Shown here: positions 2,263-48,594 of the stretch, piece by piece
Layout: the number at the start of each line of letters is the position of its first letter
Numbering within the stretch: the stretch's first letter is position 1
Source of the DNA: Eledone cirrhosa
Lineage: Eukaryota
Assembly (NCBI GenBank): GCA_964016885.1
Contig: CAXHJY010001495.1
Span: 1-64,000, forward strand
Length of the DNA stretch: 64,000 nt
Reading direction: 5' to 3'
Notes under the pieces: model-generated
Database searches by the model: none
Told to the model about the DNA's origin: nothing
What the model saw: the letters and a program-made list of their open reading frames with translations, nothing else
Made by a program: the position numbers and the translations under genes

Positions 2263-2458
2263 ATGGGAAAATGTTTAACCCCGACGGCAGAGCTCAAGCC
2301 GTTTCGACGGCTATTTCTGAGTCCAGAAATAGCCGTCGAAACGGCTTGAACTCTGCCGTCGGGGTTAAACATTTTCCTATTACCCACTCTACTACCCTAA
2401 GTATTGAGTACTCTGGTGCGTTATGGTCCATCTGATTCCTTACCACACCTCCTTCGTT
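2263..2458. mobile_element. Palindromic PLE 3'-end cassette, family A, in (TA)n
   Basis: Arms 2263-2319 and 2324-2380, plus a one-sided tail 2381-2458. Same family at 9960-10350(-), 22227-22452, 25927-26119, 39150-39287 and 48012-48124. Confidence 0.8.
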
Positions 2459-2512
2459 ATATATATATATATATATATATATATATATATGTATATATAT
2501 ATGTATGTGTGT

Positions 2513-2726
2513 CACTGGTAGCTAAGATGCTTCCATAGGCGGTATGCCGGTTGAGCACTCTATGCTCTTACAGAGCAGAGTATGATAGAATAGAAACGAA
2601 AAATCAGTGATGCATCTGAACCCAATTTATTGAGTGTTACAATTGTTTCCCCGGCGGACAGCTCGAGACGTGATCATTGTGTGGATCTGTCTGATTCTGG
2701 ACCCGCAGGCTTAACAAATCGTTCTT
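2513..2726 (-). mobile_element. PLE-type 3'-end fragment (3' half of HHR plus bulged hairpin)
   Basis: Minus strand reads GAAA-CAATTG-TA-ACAC, then AATAAA, then the ACTC..GAGTGCT hairpin at 2554-2581, ending in a microsatellite. Confidence 0.55.
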
Positions 2727-2847
2727 GTCGATAAAATAAAGTACCAGTAATACACTGGGTAATTGCTAGCCTTGTGCCTAAAGTAGAAACAATTATTATT
2801 ATATATATATATTCGGCCCTTGTGACCAATAAATGAAATCATTATAT

Positions 2848-3693
2848 TGGATTGGCAGTATCGGTAGAGGGTCGGACGCCATGCTAGGGTGGTGGATTGG
2901 CAGTATCGGTAGAGGGTCGGACGCCATGTTAGGGCGGTGGATTGGCAGTATCGGTAGAGGGCCGGACGCCATGTTAGGGCGGTGGATTGGCAGTATCGGT
3001 AGAGGGTCGGGACGCCATGTTAGGGTGGTGAATTGGCAGTATCGGTAGAGGGTCGGACGCCATGTTAGGGCGGTGTATTGGCAGTATCGGTAGAGGGTCG
3101 GACGCCATGTTAGGGCGGTGGATTGGCAGTATCGGTAGAGGGTCGGACGCCATGTTAGGGTGGTGGATTGGCAGTATCGGTAGAGGGTCGGACGCCATGT
3201 TAGGGCGGTGGATTGGCAGTATCGGTAGAGGGCCGGACGCCATGTTAGGGCGGTGGATTGGCAGTATCGGTAGAGGGTCGGACGCCATGTTAGGGTGGTG
3301 AATTGGCAGTATCGGTAGAGGGTCGGACGCCATGTTAGGGCGGTGGATTGGCAGTATCGGTAGAGGGTCGGACGCCATGTTAGGGCGGTGGATTGGCAGT
3401 ATCGGTAGAGGGTCGGACGCCATGTTAGGGCGGTGGATTGGCAGTATCGGTAGAGGGTCGGACGCCATGTTAGGGTGGTGGATTGGCAGTATCGGTAGAG
3501 GGTCGGACGCCATGTTAGGGTGGTGGATTGGCAGTATCGGTAGAGGGTCGGACGCCATGTTAGGGCGGTGGATTGGCAGTATCGGTAGAGGGTCGGACGC
3601 CATGTTAGGGTGGTGGATTGGCAGTATCGGTAGAGGGTCGGACGCCATGTTAGGGCGGTGGATTGGCAGTATCGGTAGAGGGTCGGACGCCAT
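2848..3693 (+). repeat. 45-bp minisatellite (19 copies) made of the SINE-1 5' head
   Basis: Unit GGATTGGCAGTATCGGTAGAGGGTCGGACGCCATGTTAGGGYGGT; the last unit continues into a full SINE. Confidence 0.95.
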
Positions 3694-4063
3694 GCTTTCC
3701 AGCATAGTTACGTCCCTTTACGATCTGAGTTCAAATCCCGCCGAGGTTGACTTTGCCTTTCATCCTTACGGGGTCGATAAAATAAAGTACCAGTAATGCA
3801 CTGGGTAATTGCTGGCCTTGTGCCTAAAGTAGAAACAATTATTTTAATTAGTATTATTTTAATTATTTTAAAAGAGGCGGTGGATTGGCAGTATCGGTAG
3901 AGGGTCGGACGCTATGCTTTGCTGTATAGAGTTACGGCCCTTTACGATCTGAGTTCAAATCCCGCCGAGGTTGACTTTGCCTTTCATCCTTACGGGGTCG
4001 ATAAAATAAAGTACCAGTAATGCACTGGGTAATTGCTGGCCTTGTGCCTAAAGTAGAAACAAT
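3654..4063 (+). mobile_element. Two tRNA-derived SINE-1 copies (3654-3842, 3876-4063)
   Basis: A-box-like TGGCAGTATCGG, B-box GAGTTCAAATCC, core GCCTTTCATCCTTACGGGGTCGATAAAATAAAGTACCAG (resembles Meta/MESC-type SINE cores), AATT(A) tail. About 30 copies or fragments occur across the window. Confidence 0.85.
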
Positions 4064-4298
4064 TATATGTGTGTGTGTGTGTGTGTGTGTGTGTGTGTGT
4101 GTGTGTGTGTGTGTGCGCGCACACATACATATAGCTGTGAAAACTTTTGTCGCATTCTATACATAACCATCGTTTATCAAATATACACTTATTTCGTTGA
4201 CACAGAAATGTGGAAACCATAGCTAGCACTAGTCTTTTATGGAAGCTATGGAACATGTCATACCATAGGAACTGTGACATTCATGCCTTTCCAAAGAG

Positions 4299-45485: not shown

Positions 45486-45955
45486 TGGATCGTGGCAGTA
45501 TCGGGAGAACCTCAGACGCAATACTTTGCAGCATAGAGTTATGGCCCTTTACGTTCTGAGTTCAAAATCCCGCCGAGTTTAACTTTGCCTTTACGGGGTC
45601 GATAAAATAAAGTACCAGTAATGCACTGGGGTAATTGCTGGCATTGTGCCAAAAGTAGAAACAATTATTATAGTTCTGAAAAAGTAGAGAAGACAAAATA
45701 TTTTACTTTTGTAATATTTAATGGTTTCTTTATTAGATAATGGTTTCTGATTTAGGCACAAGGCCAACAATTTTTGGGGGGGAAGGGAAAGTCGATTAAA
45801 TCGATCCCAGTGAATTACTGGTATTTTATTTTATCGACTCCGTAAGAATGAAAGGCAAAGCTAACCTCGGCAGGATTTGAACTCGGAACGCAAAGAGCCA
45901 GGATAAATATTGCTAAGCATTGAGTGGACACTTTAAAGACTCTCCCAATCTTCCA
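45486..45955. mobile_element. Two SINE-1 copies, tail-to-tail
   Basis: 45486-45666(+) and 45737-45955(-). Confidence 0.8.
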
Positions 45956-46889
45956 CCCTAATTTTTATAATAGGCCACGAGAGGAGAAGGGTATCAAATG
46001 TTAATATGTAAAATAGACCCCCCCCCCTTCGACACACCAACGAAGTGAATTCGTCTTGTCCATTAAACACACTCTATTTGCCCTTAAGTTACAGTTAACC
46101 TGTTGAATTGCACATCAAAATTGTGCTACAACCCCCGAATTAATTTAGAATATTCTAAAAGATTTCAGTCACATGGCAGGAGATTATAAAACCAGACGAG
46201 AGTTTCAGCCTGGGAGAAACCTTCAAAAATTTTTTTGAATTTATGTTATTTAGATTTGTAACATTGCGAATTCTCCCACGAACAGCTTCTTGCATAATAA
46301 ATTCTTTTCAAGACACCAACAATTGTGCGTCATTTGGATATAGGAGAATTATAATTTCACAAGGTATTTATCCTTTGGCCTAGTATTCATTAATACTTAC
46401 ACAAAAATCGTATACAACCTGTTACGTATTTATCTTTGAAATTACCGTTGGGTTAATGATGTTTATATTCTTTCTACGTAGTATTGTGACGCTAGTCTTC
46501 TGTTGTGTGTATATACGGATGTTTGTTTATACGCAGTTTTCCTAACATGTGATATAAAGCGTTTCAGTTCTTTATACGCATTGTTTAGGCTTCTAAATCA
46601 TTTAAAATGATCATTTACTATTCGGATGTTGTCGTTTCTTTTTAATATCCGTCATGACCTTTTTTTACACTTTCTAAAATTCATCTAAAGATTAATATCC
46701 AACAATTGGTTTATATTTGAGAATTTCCTTTTGGAATTTGTCGTTCATAAATAACTTACTTAACAGACCTCGCACCCACTTGGGGGAGAGATGCCTTCTC
46801 TTGTGAAAATGGGTATAGCTTTCATTATGTAAAATCTCACCATTTTGAGGCACTTTTTTTTTTTTTTTTGCATGGTACTCCCCGCTTGG

Positions 46890-47320
46890 CGATTCTTTTC
46901 TGAGATATTCTAACCACATGTCCATAGTATCAGAGCTGTGATCTCTCAATTCGGAGAAGTATCAGCTCTACTTGAAGTGACTCACTGATCTCCGAGCTAC
47001 ACACACTATCAAGTAACATTACTTCAAAGACCCTTTTGAGGAACCACACTTCGGCCACTTGTATACGCGATAACATTCTTTCGGTCATTACCAAAGATAC
47101 ATAACCATAGCAAAGAGTTGGCACCAATACCAAATCGAAGATAACTAGTTTGGCTTTTATACCTACCACCTTTCCTTTGATTGCCGAATGCTGAAGCTGG
47201 CGCATTACTGTACCAGCTCCTAGAGTTCTTGCACTTAATTTACCATCTTCCCTTCCATCACTCGTGAACAAGGCCCTGAGATACTTGAACCTCTCTACCT
47301 GCTTCAGTAGAACTCCATTC
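46890..47320 (-). mobile_element. Rex3-like RTE LINE fragment (unamplified copy)
   Basis: ORF 46930-47271: FTSDGR..MTERMLSRIQVAEVWFLKRV..IERSQL. Confidence 0.88.
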
Positions 47321-47484
47321 TCTTATATAAATGTTTTACAACTTGTTTATTGATAAAACCATTTCTAAACAGATGGATAATATCCACTTACATAATTAAC
47401 TCTATTTTCTTCCCTGTTTTCTGTACATACGTGTGTGTGCATGCATATATATATATATATATATATATATATATATATATATAT

Positions 47485-47997
47485 GGAGGAAGTTATAGTT
47501 CACTTGAAGCATTGTGTAATGAGGTATAAACGTTTGAATTTGTAAAGCCAAACAATGCAGGTGTGGACATAGAATAAAAATGCAAATGTTATTGTTGACA
47601 ATTAGTCTTTTACCTTAGATTTATTTAAATGTCCTTAATTTTCGAGATAATATCTCTTCTTCGGAGGGAAGTAAAGCGGTTAAACCAGTGTTCTAAATAG
47701 CTTGCCAGGTCATGCTGACAGGAAATGGTATAGAGTATCTGTTCTATCTCTAATGTCAAACTCTTTGACATTAGAGATAGAACAGATACTCTATACCATT
47801 TCCTGTCAGCATGACCTGGCAAGCTATTTAGAACACTGGTTTAACCGCTTTACTTCCCTCCGAAGAAGAGATATTATCTCGAAAATTAAGGACATTTAAA
47901 TAAATCTAAGGTTAAAAACTAATTGTCTACAATAACTTTTGCATTTGCATTTTTATTCTATGTCCATACCTGCATTGTTTGGCTTTACAAATTCAAA
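47485..47997. mobile_element. Palindromic PLE end cassette with ~228-bp arms
   Basis: Arms 47533-47760 and 47764-47997, tail on the left. HHR-like CCT-CCGAAGA-aGAGATattATCTC-GAAA-AT-TA-AGG at 47857-47891 and its mirror at 47633-47667. Confidence 0.82.
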
Positions 47998-48289
47998 TAT
48001 ATATATATATATAACAAAGGAATTGTGGTAAGGAACCAGATGGACCATAACGCACCAGAGTACTCAATACTTAGAGTAGTAGAGTGGGAAATAGGAAAAA
48101 GTATGACCCCGACGGGAGAGCTCATATATATATATTTATCTTTATCGAGCCCTCTTTGGATTTTAGTCTTCAAATTTATTACTATATATATATAGTTAAG
48201 GGTGAAAGCAGCGATTCTTTGCTTAAACTTTAATCTGTTATTTTATATATATATATATATATATATATATATATATATATATATATATA

Positions 48290-48594
48290 TCACATAAGAA
48301 ACGGAGAATCAGTGTTGCGACGAATTAAATTTTTTTAGACATATTACAATCGTTTCTCTGGCGACCAGCTCAAGGCACGATCGATGTAATGATCGAAGCT
48401 GACTCTGAAATAGCAAGGTCCTCAGATACGTCTCGATTCTACGAAGCTCGAGACGTATCTGAGGACCTTGCTATTTCAGAGTCAGCTTCGATCATTACAT
48501 CGATCGTGCCTTGAGCTGGTCGCCAGAGAAACGATTGTAATATGTCTAAAAAAATTTAATTCGTCGCAACACTGATTCTCCGTTTCTTATGTGA
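48290..48594. mobile_element. Perfect palindrome (147-bp arms, 11-bp spacer) made of two extended-stem-II HHRs
   Basis: GACGTAT-CTGAGGA-[62 nt]-GAAA-CGATTG-TA-ATATGTC at 48452-48546(+) and 48338-48432(-); (TA)n on both sides. Confidence 0.9.

Follow-up and report, generated by a model that had tools for sequence, protein, structure and literature searches.

How do head-to-head palindromes of retroelement ends come to fill the (TA)n tracts of a genome? The question is raised by the 64 kb at the start of a 90-kb contig, unplaced and itself beginning in (TA)n (contig CAXHJY010001495.1 of the 3.0-Gb genome of Eledone cirrhosa, assembly GCA_964016885.1), referred to here as the window. It holds a series of inverted cassettes of Penelope-like elements (PLEs), in which two 3′ ends point outward, as the initial annotation had stated. 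We denote the tail-less end of a cassette as S and the tailed end as T. The two-ended priming proposed in that annotation is retained in our best model, duplicating twin priming on one sense RNA followed by end joining, which we regard as reasonably probable.

The largest cassette (3.3 kb) encodes, as annotated, reverse transcriptase (RT) plus GIY-YIG endonuclease and has arms of 1232 bp. This insertion, of a family termed A, has the following features (strand is given where one was assigned):

34768 to 38082: family A PLE insertion, with a tail-less arm at 34768-36793 (sense on the minus strand) and a tailed arm at 36794-38082 (sense on the plus strand)
34766-35997 and 36794-38025: shared arms, 100% identical, the spacer at 35998-36793 being part of the tail-less arm
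35266 to 36804, minus strand: 5′-truncated frame of 512 amino acids, with an RT core, a CX4CxxC linker and a GIY-YIG endonuclease with CCHH
36794 to 37525, plus strand: second copy of the C-terminal part of this frame
37822 to 37866, plus strand: minimal type I hammerhead ribozyme by motif and fold, predicted to cut after 37861
34925 to 34969, minus strand: mirror copy of the hammerhead, by motif
38026 to 38082, plus strand: family A 57-nt tail, equal to the start of the next unit's open reading frame (ORF; ATG near 38000), both borders being ATAT microhomologies

In Pfam the 512-amino-acid frame matches RVT_1 at E=2e-4, below cut-off, and GIY-YIG at E=1e-4.

The PLE origin of the cassettes is supported by the tracing of two families, A and B, to full-length copies. 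In both, a single ORF encodes a PLE-type RT followed by a C-terminal GIY-YIG endonuclease, with weak Pfam support (RVT_1 below cut-off; GIY-YIG at cut-off in family A and at E=0.07 in family B). Full-length and tandem copies carry partial-tandem pseudo-long terminal repeats (pLTRs) that contain the ORF start, with an optional tail. A type I hammerhead, a predicted ribozyme, is present in the pLTR by motif and fold; a strict hammerhead descriptor matched twice in the window and never in 30 shuffles, and no hammerhead was among the Rfam matches listed (150 of 228). Judged by its predicted protein, family A is a Neptune/Nematis-type canonical PLE, with the CX2-5CxxC linker and the CCHH in the endonuclease that define this type (PMC8557442). 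By the same kind of motif evidence family B is placed in the Hydra clade (CxCX5C linker, DKT, CxxC plus CxH, no CCHH), which it also resembles in its C-terminal endonuclease, hammerhead and (TA)n targets (PMC8557442). It differs from the Hydra criterion of RWK and a unit under 3 kb in having RWR at the RWK position and units of 3,543 bp (open frame of 784-786 codons, long 3′ untranslated region), and its hammerhead has a U3-A8 core, a variant already known (PMC4209133). The initial annotation had pointed to Naiad, which is the wrong clade: Naiad PLEs share the (TA)n targeting, inverted copies and tail, but have an N-terminal endonuclease and no canonical hammerhead, whereas both traced families have a C-terminal endonuclease and a canonical hammerhead.

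The two kinds of end lie at fixed places at the start of the next unit, 57 nt apart in family A and 77-80 nt apart in family B, with a 3-4-nt AU microhomology at each; in family A both S and T fall at an AATATCG-like word. In the full-length family A copy the tail proves to be the opening part of the ORF of the next unit, whose frame continues beyond the tail end; the family B T end also reads on after TAT. The tailed end had been taken for the RNA's 3′ end. This is contradicted by full-length copies, which continue into the ORF past it, and a short AU microhomology lies there too. The tail regions fold no better than shuffles (z +0.9, +1.2), and an exact 27-mer of the family A tail occurs 15,132 times in the genome. 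Insertions number roughly 16,000 for family A and several thousand for family B.

Some further observations concern the two families. A full-length family A copy (L091+L092, G000:C1:about 2,083,700-2,090,100) has an Asn/His/Thr-rich insert in its N-terminal part, with a frame break inside it, that resembles the Asn-rich inserts of rotifer Penelope (PMC3846280). At another locus (L229-L231, G000:C1:91,473,000-91,494,000) one arm consists of 4.5 head-to-tail family B units of 99.6-100% identity, and a 55-bp piece of the ORF has expanded to a 3.6-kb minisatellite exactly at the inversion junction. Family A sequence may be partly present in runs of at least six other organisms (share 0.24-0.42); no RNA dataset was among the matches listed for it.

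Nearly always, one tailed end is paired with one tail-less end. Among the first 100 listed family A ends, 25 of 26 diverging pairs are S+T (50% expected if independent, p=4e-7), the 26th belonging to a full-length copy that has T and S as its outer ends. For family B the count is 15 of 16 among 100 listed ends (p=2e-4). A separate sample of 43 family A loci, chosen by a ribozyme point change and comprising 20 with an inverted piece and 23 one-armed copies, gave 11 S+T pairs out of 11, and long or tandem family B insertions follow the same pattern in five of six cases (one with a 16-kb tandem arm), the sixth terminating inside the ORF. One-armed family A copies terminate at either S or T and a 5-kb arm terminates at the tail-less site, and both sites are therefore primary starts.

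Marks of RNA editing bear on the template. Two family A elements of the first sample are rich in A>G changes in both arms, and pattern searches added three two-armed cases. In these five insertions the numbers of edited A sites shared by the arms and discordant between them are 101 and 9, 16 and 1, 29 and 2, 33 and 1, and 108 and 0. The changes are strand-specific: in the best case the ORF strand shows 150 and 107 A>G changes versus 0 and 1 T>C. Neighbours of the edited sites (5′ U>A>G,C; 3′ G) match the preference of ADAR, whose hyper-editing patterns are specific to a single molecule. Exact edited 27-mers of two elements were found only in their own two arms, and a degenerate edited pattern gave eight matches, all in four pairs with none unpaired. 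As a control for conversion, single-change arms whose partner covers the site were not matched by that partner (5 of 5); since point changes are not common to both arms, conversion is not routine. Both arms of the edited insertions thus likely descend from one edited sense RNA molecule, and the shared marks in five of five informative copies make it likely that both primers sat on one RNA, as in L1 twin priming. The initial annotation had called for two templates or two passes; two passes are likely, and two templates are disfavoured by the shared marks.

Almost no edits lie in the tail or in the 85 nt that precede S (1 of ~150 A sites), as if this region were covered by protein or edits there blocked insertion. 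The pattern searches may miss edited copies, because two of the five fell in the first 40, which would be lucky if so few existed. One edited one-armed copy (L205, G000:C2:210,419,600) has A>G in the S-site word, a tailed end and no S arm, as expected, in this one case, if the S-site word is needed for priming.

Inversion junctions are specific to each copy, differing in 39 of 39 family A and 20 of 21 family B elements. Their position near the hammerhead, noticed at the outset, held in both families: in family B, 31 of 32 arm ends lie 39-74 nt before S, inside ribozyme stem II, and in family A enrichment is moderate, with 24 of 76 arm ends falling within 120 nt that cover the ribozyme and the sequence immediately 5′ to it, compared with 21 in the 160 nt nearer S and 8 in the next 120 nt. 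Either arm can be the longer. Among 38 family A elements (14 loci chosen because both ends were already listed; L055 left out for its unrelated central insert, L129 without a tailed-arm match, L141 set by hand) the tail-less arm is longer in 16 and the tailed arm in 15, and the two are within 10 nt in 7 (1.6 expected, p=6e-4). As had been predicted, short-arm ends tend to fall at TA microhomology: at least 3 nt of alternating TA was present in 14 of 29 sequence clusters (at least three of them spurious but kept in the count) versus 17% expected (p=1e-4).

Inserts of 12-61 nt are present at 6 of the 38 family A junctions, and in five of these at least 12 nt is copied from within 60 nt; templated junction inserts of this kind resemble polymerase-theta end joining. 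The microhomology lengths obtained for the junctions are each the largest value among many copies and therefore inflated, and no count is based on them. One junction (L102) has a short snap-back insert, and an edited 2-kb palindrome has no spacer, only a 2-nt palindromic overlap. The arms of one element diverge by up to 12%. Comparison of short arms with the nearest copy was uninformative (16 closer, 3 equal and 15 farther in family A; 1, 1 and 11 in family B). The claim that sequence is duplicated, unlike in L1, stands: nearly all cassettes have duplicated arms, and only L203 and the window cassette at 39151, tail-only inverted pieces stopping at or near the upstream site, approach none. The inverted arms of two tandem insertions resemble the 3′-most unit, agreeing with it at 5 of 6 diagnostic sites in one and at 4 of 5 in the other.

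These observations suggest a mechanism. The elements, which represent two or more PLE clades and have (TA)n flanks, end at two fixed internal AU-microhomology sites. In vitro, a PLE protein with a predicted dimer nicks and extends both target strands, and reverse transcription begins at two internal sites that bound the tail (PMC11167929). In the model, one ribonucleoprotein (RNP) would engage both start sites together, one per target end, yielding the one-of-each rule. The downstream primer would copy the tail and continue over RNA already copied from the upstream primer, by strand displacement or by second use of a DNA copy of that RNA, and so create the duplication; were the downstream copy to halt at the upstream site, plain twin priming without duplication would result. 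Both complementary DNAs (cDNAs) would either stall at structure, for instance in hammerhead stem II, or reach the same RNA end and run off there, and would be joined through short palindromic microhomology, sometimes with templated insertions, host end joining being the likely agent. Priming by one target end only would leave a one-armed 5′-truncated copy, as about half of the copies are. In L1 twin priming, reportedly set out by Ostertag and Kazazian in 2001, two target ends prime one RNA and an inverted 5′ part is joined at microhomology; that process is said to give inversion with deletion, no duplication and a variable second primer, whereas the primer sites here are fixed and the duplication reaches kilobases. 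We consider it somewhat better than an even bet that the process is programmed, with one RNP bringing both sides of a double-strand cut to two start sites built into one sense RNA molecule, the ADAR marks serving as single-molecule barcodes, and about a quarter million hairpin-forming palindromes left behind.

Several observations weigh against this account. We infer the steps from joint engagement of the start sites to joining, and no intermediate has been observed. The in vitro start sites are reported as non-homologous to the cut DNA (PMC11167929). Some insertions depart from the one-of-each rule (L107 with T+T, L088 and the window cassette at 48290 with S+S, and the window cassette at 30543), and at 30543 there is apparent arm-to-arm conversion. 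The editing evidence consists of five two-armed copies, all of family A, with a clearly longer tail-less arm only in L104; L068 has two A>G changes in one arm only, and a search near the short end of family B gave no edited copies (0). In one full-length copy the inverted tailed arm matches the junction-side unit (3 mismatches) and not the 3′-most one (58), a result that is not expected under the simplest one-dimer model. Tandem family B insertions gave five tests, of which two favour the 3′-most unit, two are uninformative (3 v 2, 1 v 1) and one, on an old copy, leans to the junction-side unit (64 v 37). One tandem has a short arm unlike any of its five units, set apart by four substitutions and a 19-nt gap.

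Some of these points would suit other origins of the palindromes. A target-primed cDNA might snap back and be copied toward the target, then be cut or joined at the second site, with later central deletions making either arm the longer. This fold-back route is unlikely but would also predict one of each end, identical edits, a sense template and the excess of near-equal arms (7 of 38), and it fits the short snap-back insert of L102 as well as the full-length copy in which the junction-side unit is the one repeated by the inverted arm; Craig et al. credit the tail to endonuclease resolution of an intermediate (PMC8557442). However, a cDNA begun at the tail-less site has no tail to copy, and one begun at T cannot yield a longer tail-less arm, so that 16 of 38 elements, including the 100%-identical one of the window, need an extra deletion. 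Tail-less ends are also present on one-armed copies, the zero-spacer 2-kb palindrome persists undeleted, and both sites are RT starts in vitro (PMC11167929). Two RNA molecules, one per target end, with arms alike through a common source locus or later homogenisation, would account for the tandem short arm unlike all five units and for a full-length copy that may combine two templates, and conversion was seen once in the window. Yet edits are common to both arms in five of five informative insertions with no third copy found, point changes have not been homogenised (5 of 5), and independent templates alone do not give the one-of-each rule; we consider this route improbable.

For rotifer Penelope, self-priming with an antisense transcript as template has been put forward (PMC3846280). 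It would explain the head-to-head orientation and the junction palindromes, and the editing shows that double-stranded RNA of these elements exists. Read along the ORF strand, however, the marks are A>G, with T>C next to absent (150:0, 107:1); the copied RNA was therefore sense in all edited copies examined, an antisense template is contradicted for them, and the proposal is very improbable here. There is hardly any likelihood that the cassettes are DNA-mobilised miniature inverted-repeat transposable elements (MITEs) or fixed palindromic units. They do have terminal inverted repeats in a TA context, family B junctions cluster and one recurs, and the window cassettes at 30543 and 33809 have a common junction. 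Against this, junctions differ in nearly all elements of both families, the common window junction lies in a local duplication, the arms are 3′ parts of RT-encoding units, and the RNA-editing marks prove an RNA step. A MITE of the Tc1/mariner type has fixed symmetric ends and a fixed interior, and here ends are asymmetric and junctions variable; the variable junctions bear out the earlier view that these are not MITEs. As for an artefact of long-read fold-back or of assembly, the window contig is unplaced and begins in (TA)n, and its junction at 36793/36794 is spanned by no reads (4 runs) or contigs among the matches listed, which for a young insertion shows nothing either way. The fixed asymmetric ends, the diverged arms and like structures on chromosome-size contigs speak against an artefact. 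So do independent raw Illumina reads (run X24), which contain two other head-to-head family A junctions, one in 17 reads with 4 starts and the other in 111 reads that may represent one locus, though not the large one of the window, and the chance of an artefact is negligible. Duplicating twin priming on a single sense RNA thus remains our preferred explanation.

The remaining cassettes of the window, checked by self-comparison and direct reading, show how far the anatomy extends. An inverted repeat is present at all 18 positions listed initially, and two cassettes had been overlooked (33809, 39151). The asymmetry claimed for them, one arm flush and the other with a tail of 36-80 nt, holds for 12 of the 18 (2263, 18957, 19431, 20737, 21141, 21347, 22227, 25927, 29491, 34766, 38187, 47485) and fails in the other six: 29348 and 48290 are symmetric, 30543 has a tail on both arms and lies within (TG)n/(CA)n, the left end of 34335 is irregular, and the inverted repeats are weak at 39089, with arms of 19 bp, and at 39871, where the 23-bp arms match at 20 of 23 positions. 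The (TA)n flanks hold for ten of the 12 asymmetric cassettes; 20737 lacks (TA)n on both sides, lying between a repeat like a short interspersed nuclear element (SINE) on the left and (TC)n on the right, and 21347 lacks it on the tail side. The estimate of at least ten unrelated families agrees in number with the ~14 sequence groups counted, while their unrelatedness is unproven. About 12 window groups beyond A and B recur elsewhere with equal anatomy, some with hammerhead-like cores. The cassettes are:

2263 to 2457: family B (putatively Hydra-type) cassette, arms 2263-2319 and 2324-2380, tail 2381-2457
18957 to 19139: family F/O cassette, left 53-nt tail, 63-bp low-complexity arms
19432 to 19821: cassette of an older family A subfamily, left tail-less, right tailed, hammerhead cores at 19563 (minus) and 19597 (plus)
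20737 to 21036: family G cassette, 118-bp arms, right tail, no (TA)n flanks here
21142 to 21279: family H cassette, 39-bp arms, right 59-nt tail
21348 to 21480: family I cassette, 39-bp arms, right tail
22226 to 22450: family B cassette, arms 22229-22297 and 22302-22370, right tail
25928 to 26120: family B cassette, left tail, arms 26008-26061 and 26064-26117
29354 to 29467: family E symmetric cassette, 52-bp arms, no further copy among the loci examined; absent from the paralogous tract at ~32100-33790
29492 to 30385: family D cassette, left 36-41-nt tail, arms of ~318 bp with a further inversion nested inside; missing in the paralogous tract
30543 to 30746: family C cassette with tails on both arms; local duplicate at 33809-33971 with identical junction
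33809 to 33971: family C cassette, left tailed, right tail-less
34334 to 34736: family F/O cassette, hammerhead-like core at 34487 (plus), irregular left end
38187 to 38424: family J cassette, 96-bp arms, right 38-nt tail
39089 to 39138: weak 19-bp inverted repeat adjoining a hammerhead-bearing arm at 38970-39034 (minus)
39151 to 39285: family B, inverted tail fused to a tail-less arm with ~10 nt duplicated, twin-priming-like
39870 to 39965: weak cassette with 23-bp arms and 33 additional nt on the left
47485 to 47996: family M cassette, left 48-nt tail, 227-bp arms, degenerate hammerhead cores at 47664 (minus) and 47860 (plus)
48291 to 48593: family N cassette, neither side with a tail, identical at 146 of 146 positions

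Two other family N copies have one tailed and one tail-less end, with different junctions. A local duplication within the window (~28200-30900, precisely 28199-30900, and ~31740-34050, precisely 31741-34050) has different insertions in its TA tracts, and the cassettes at 29348 and 29491 are in the tract of one duplicate only, which provides a paralogous empty site. In one duplicate the right end of the shared family C cassette (30543), with its (CA)n flank, has been remade as a mirror of the left. Palindromes at 19015-19134, 22267-22332, 30505-30784 and 48404-48480 score as Rfam microRNA precursors below the gathering thresholds and are an annotation trap.

Other features of the window include RT fragments of non-LTR (long terminal repeat) retrotransposons at 59126-60532 (minus), 15162-16255 (plus) and 44098-47322, one with a PHD-like finger insert; similar elements flank family A copies elsewhere. 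A 266-codon frame at 5735-6535 (plus) has no Pfam match, and we take it to resemble the C-terminal restriction-like endonuclease part of a non-LTR element. Tandem arrays lie at 2799-3796 (~36-bp units) and 41720-42950 (~30-bp units), the first derived from a SINE-like repeat also present at 20552-20736. A tRNA-like match above the Rfam cut-off at 9818-9888 (minus), inside a TA-flanked repeat found in a family J arm elsewhere, is probably a SINE head.

How common such cassettes are was estimated from forty 10-kb stretches (400 kb) at fixed positions on six contigs. Cassettes were present in 18 of the 40 stretches, comprising 34 S+T, 4 flush+flush and 2 T+T, and occupy ~8% of the sampled 400 kb; extrapolation gives ~250,000 in the genome (bootstrap 157,000-367,000). 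A random point lies at flush distance from a TA tract with frequency 0.20 and at tail-like distance with 0.18, and the excess of flush+tailed cassettes exceeds chance. Elsewhere, cassettes of different families are stacked in long nests (e.g. L068, L083, L085, L141), each insertion splitting a TA tract that regrows between them.

The structure itself, an inverted copy with a tail on one arm only, was already described, as were the ribozymes and (TA)n targeting (PMC3846280, PMC8557442, PMC4209133); pairs of opposite-strand hammerheads 100-700 bp apart are also in print (PMC4209133). The cassettes resemble the inverted pLTRs of endonuclease-containing (EN+) PLEs (Arkhipova et al. 2013, PMC3846280; Craig et al. 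2021, PMC8557442) in the head-to-head 5′-truncated copy, the tail at one end that is the ORF start, the hammerhead in the repeat and the AT-rich or (TA)n targets. That literature gives a tail of 30-40 bp, described as "optional" or "often at one end", whereas here it is 25-100 nt and a one-of-each rule has been measured. The origin of PLE inverted copies and tails was called undefined (PMC8557442) and the choice between sense and antisense template left open (PMC3846280); in contrast to the antisense self-priming proposed there, the marks described here point to one sense RNA. The closest biochemical parallel is PAc, a Poseidon element of Anolis (Frangieh et al. 2024, PMC11167929), in which the tail is likewise bounded by a pair of internal RT starts, both strands are nicked and extended, and a dimer is predicted. 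Ribozyme cleavage is dispensable for PAc, and here cDNAs run through the cut site. In the main text of that paper the two starts of PAc are not linked to the two ends of one inverted insertion and are reported as non-homologous to the target, whereas both starts here have 3-4-nt AU microhomology to (TA)n. A literature search of listings and abstracts, with most subscription papers outside its scope, found no one-of-each rule or twin-priming model for PLEs and no use of fixed ADAR marks as template barcodes; nor did it find both ends at internal 3-4-nt AU microhomologies, or copy-specific junctions with either arm the longer. The words "tail" and "priming" are absent from the available part of a retrozyme preprint (10.64898/2026.07.22.740005).

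The one-of-each rule and the editing barcodes narrow the inversion of PLEs to one sense RNA and two ends. Programmed duplicating twin priming, if true, would jointly account for the tail of PLEs, for its restriction to one arm and for their head-to-head inverted copies. For the genome, the cassettes are a large and easily mis-annotated part, and they probably supply hairpin RNA to editing and small-RNA pathways.

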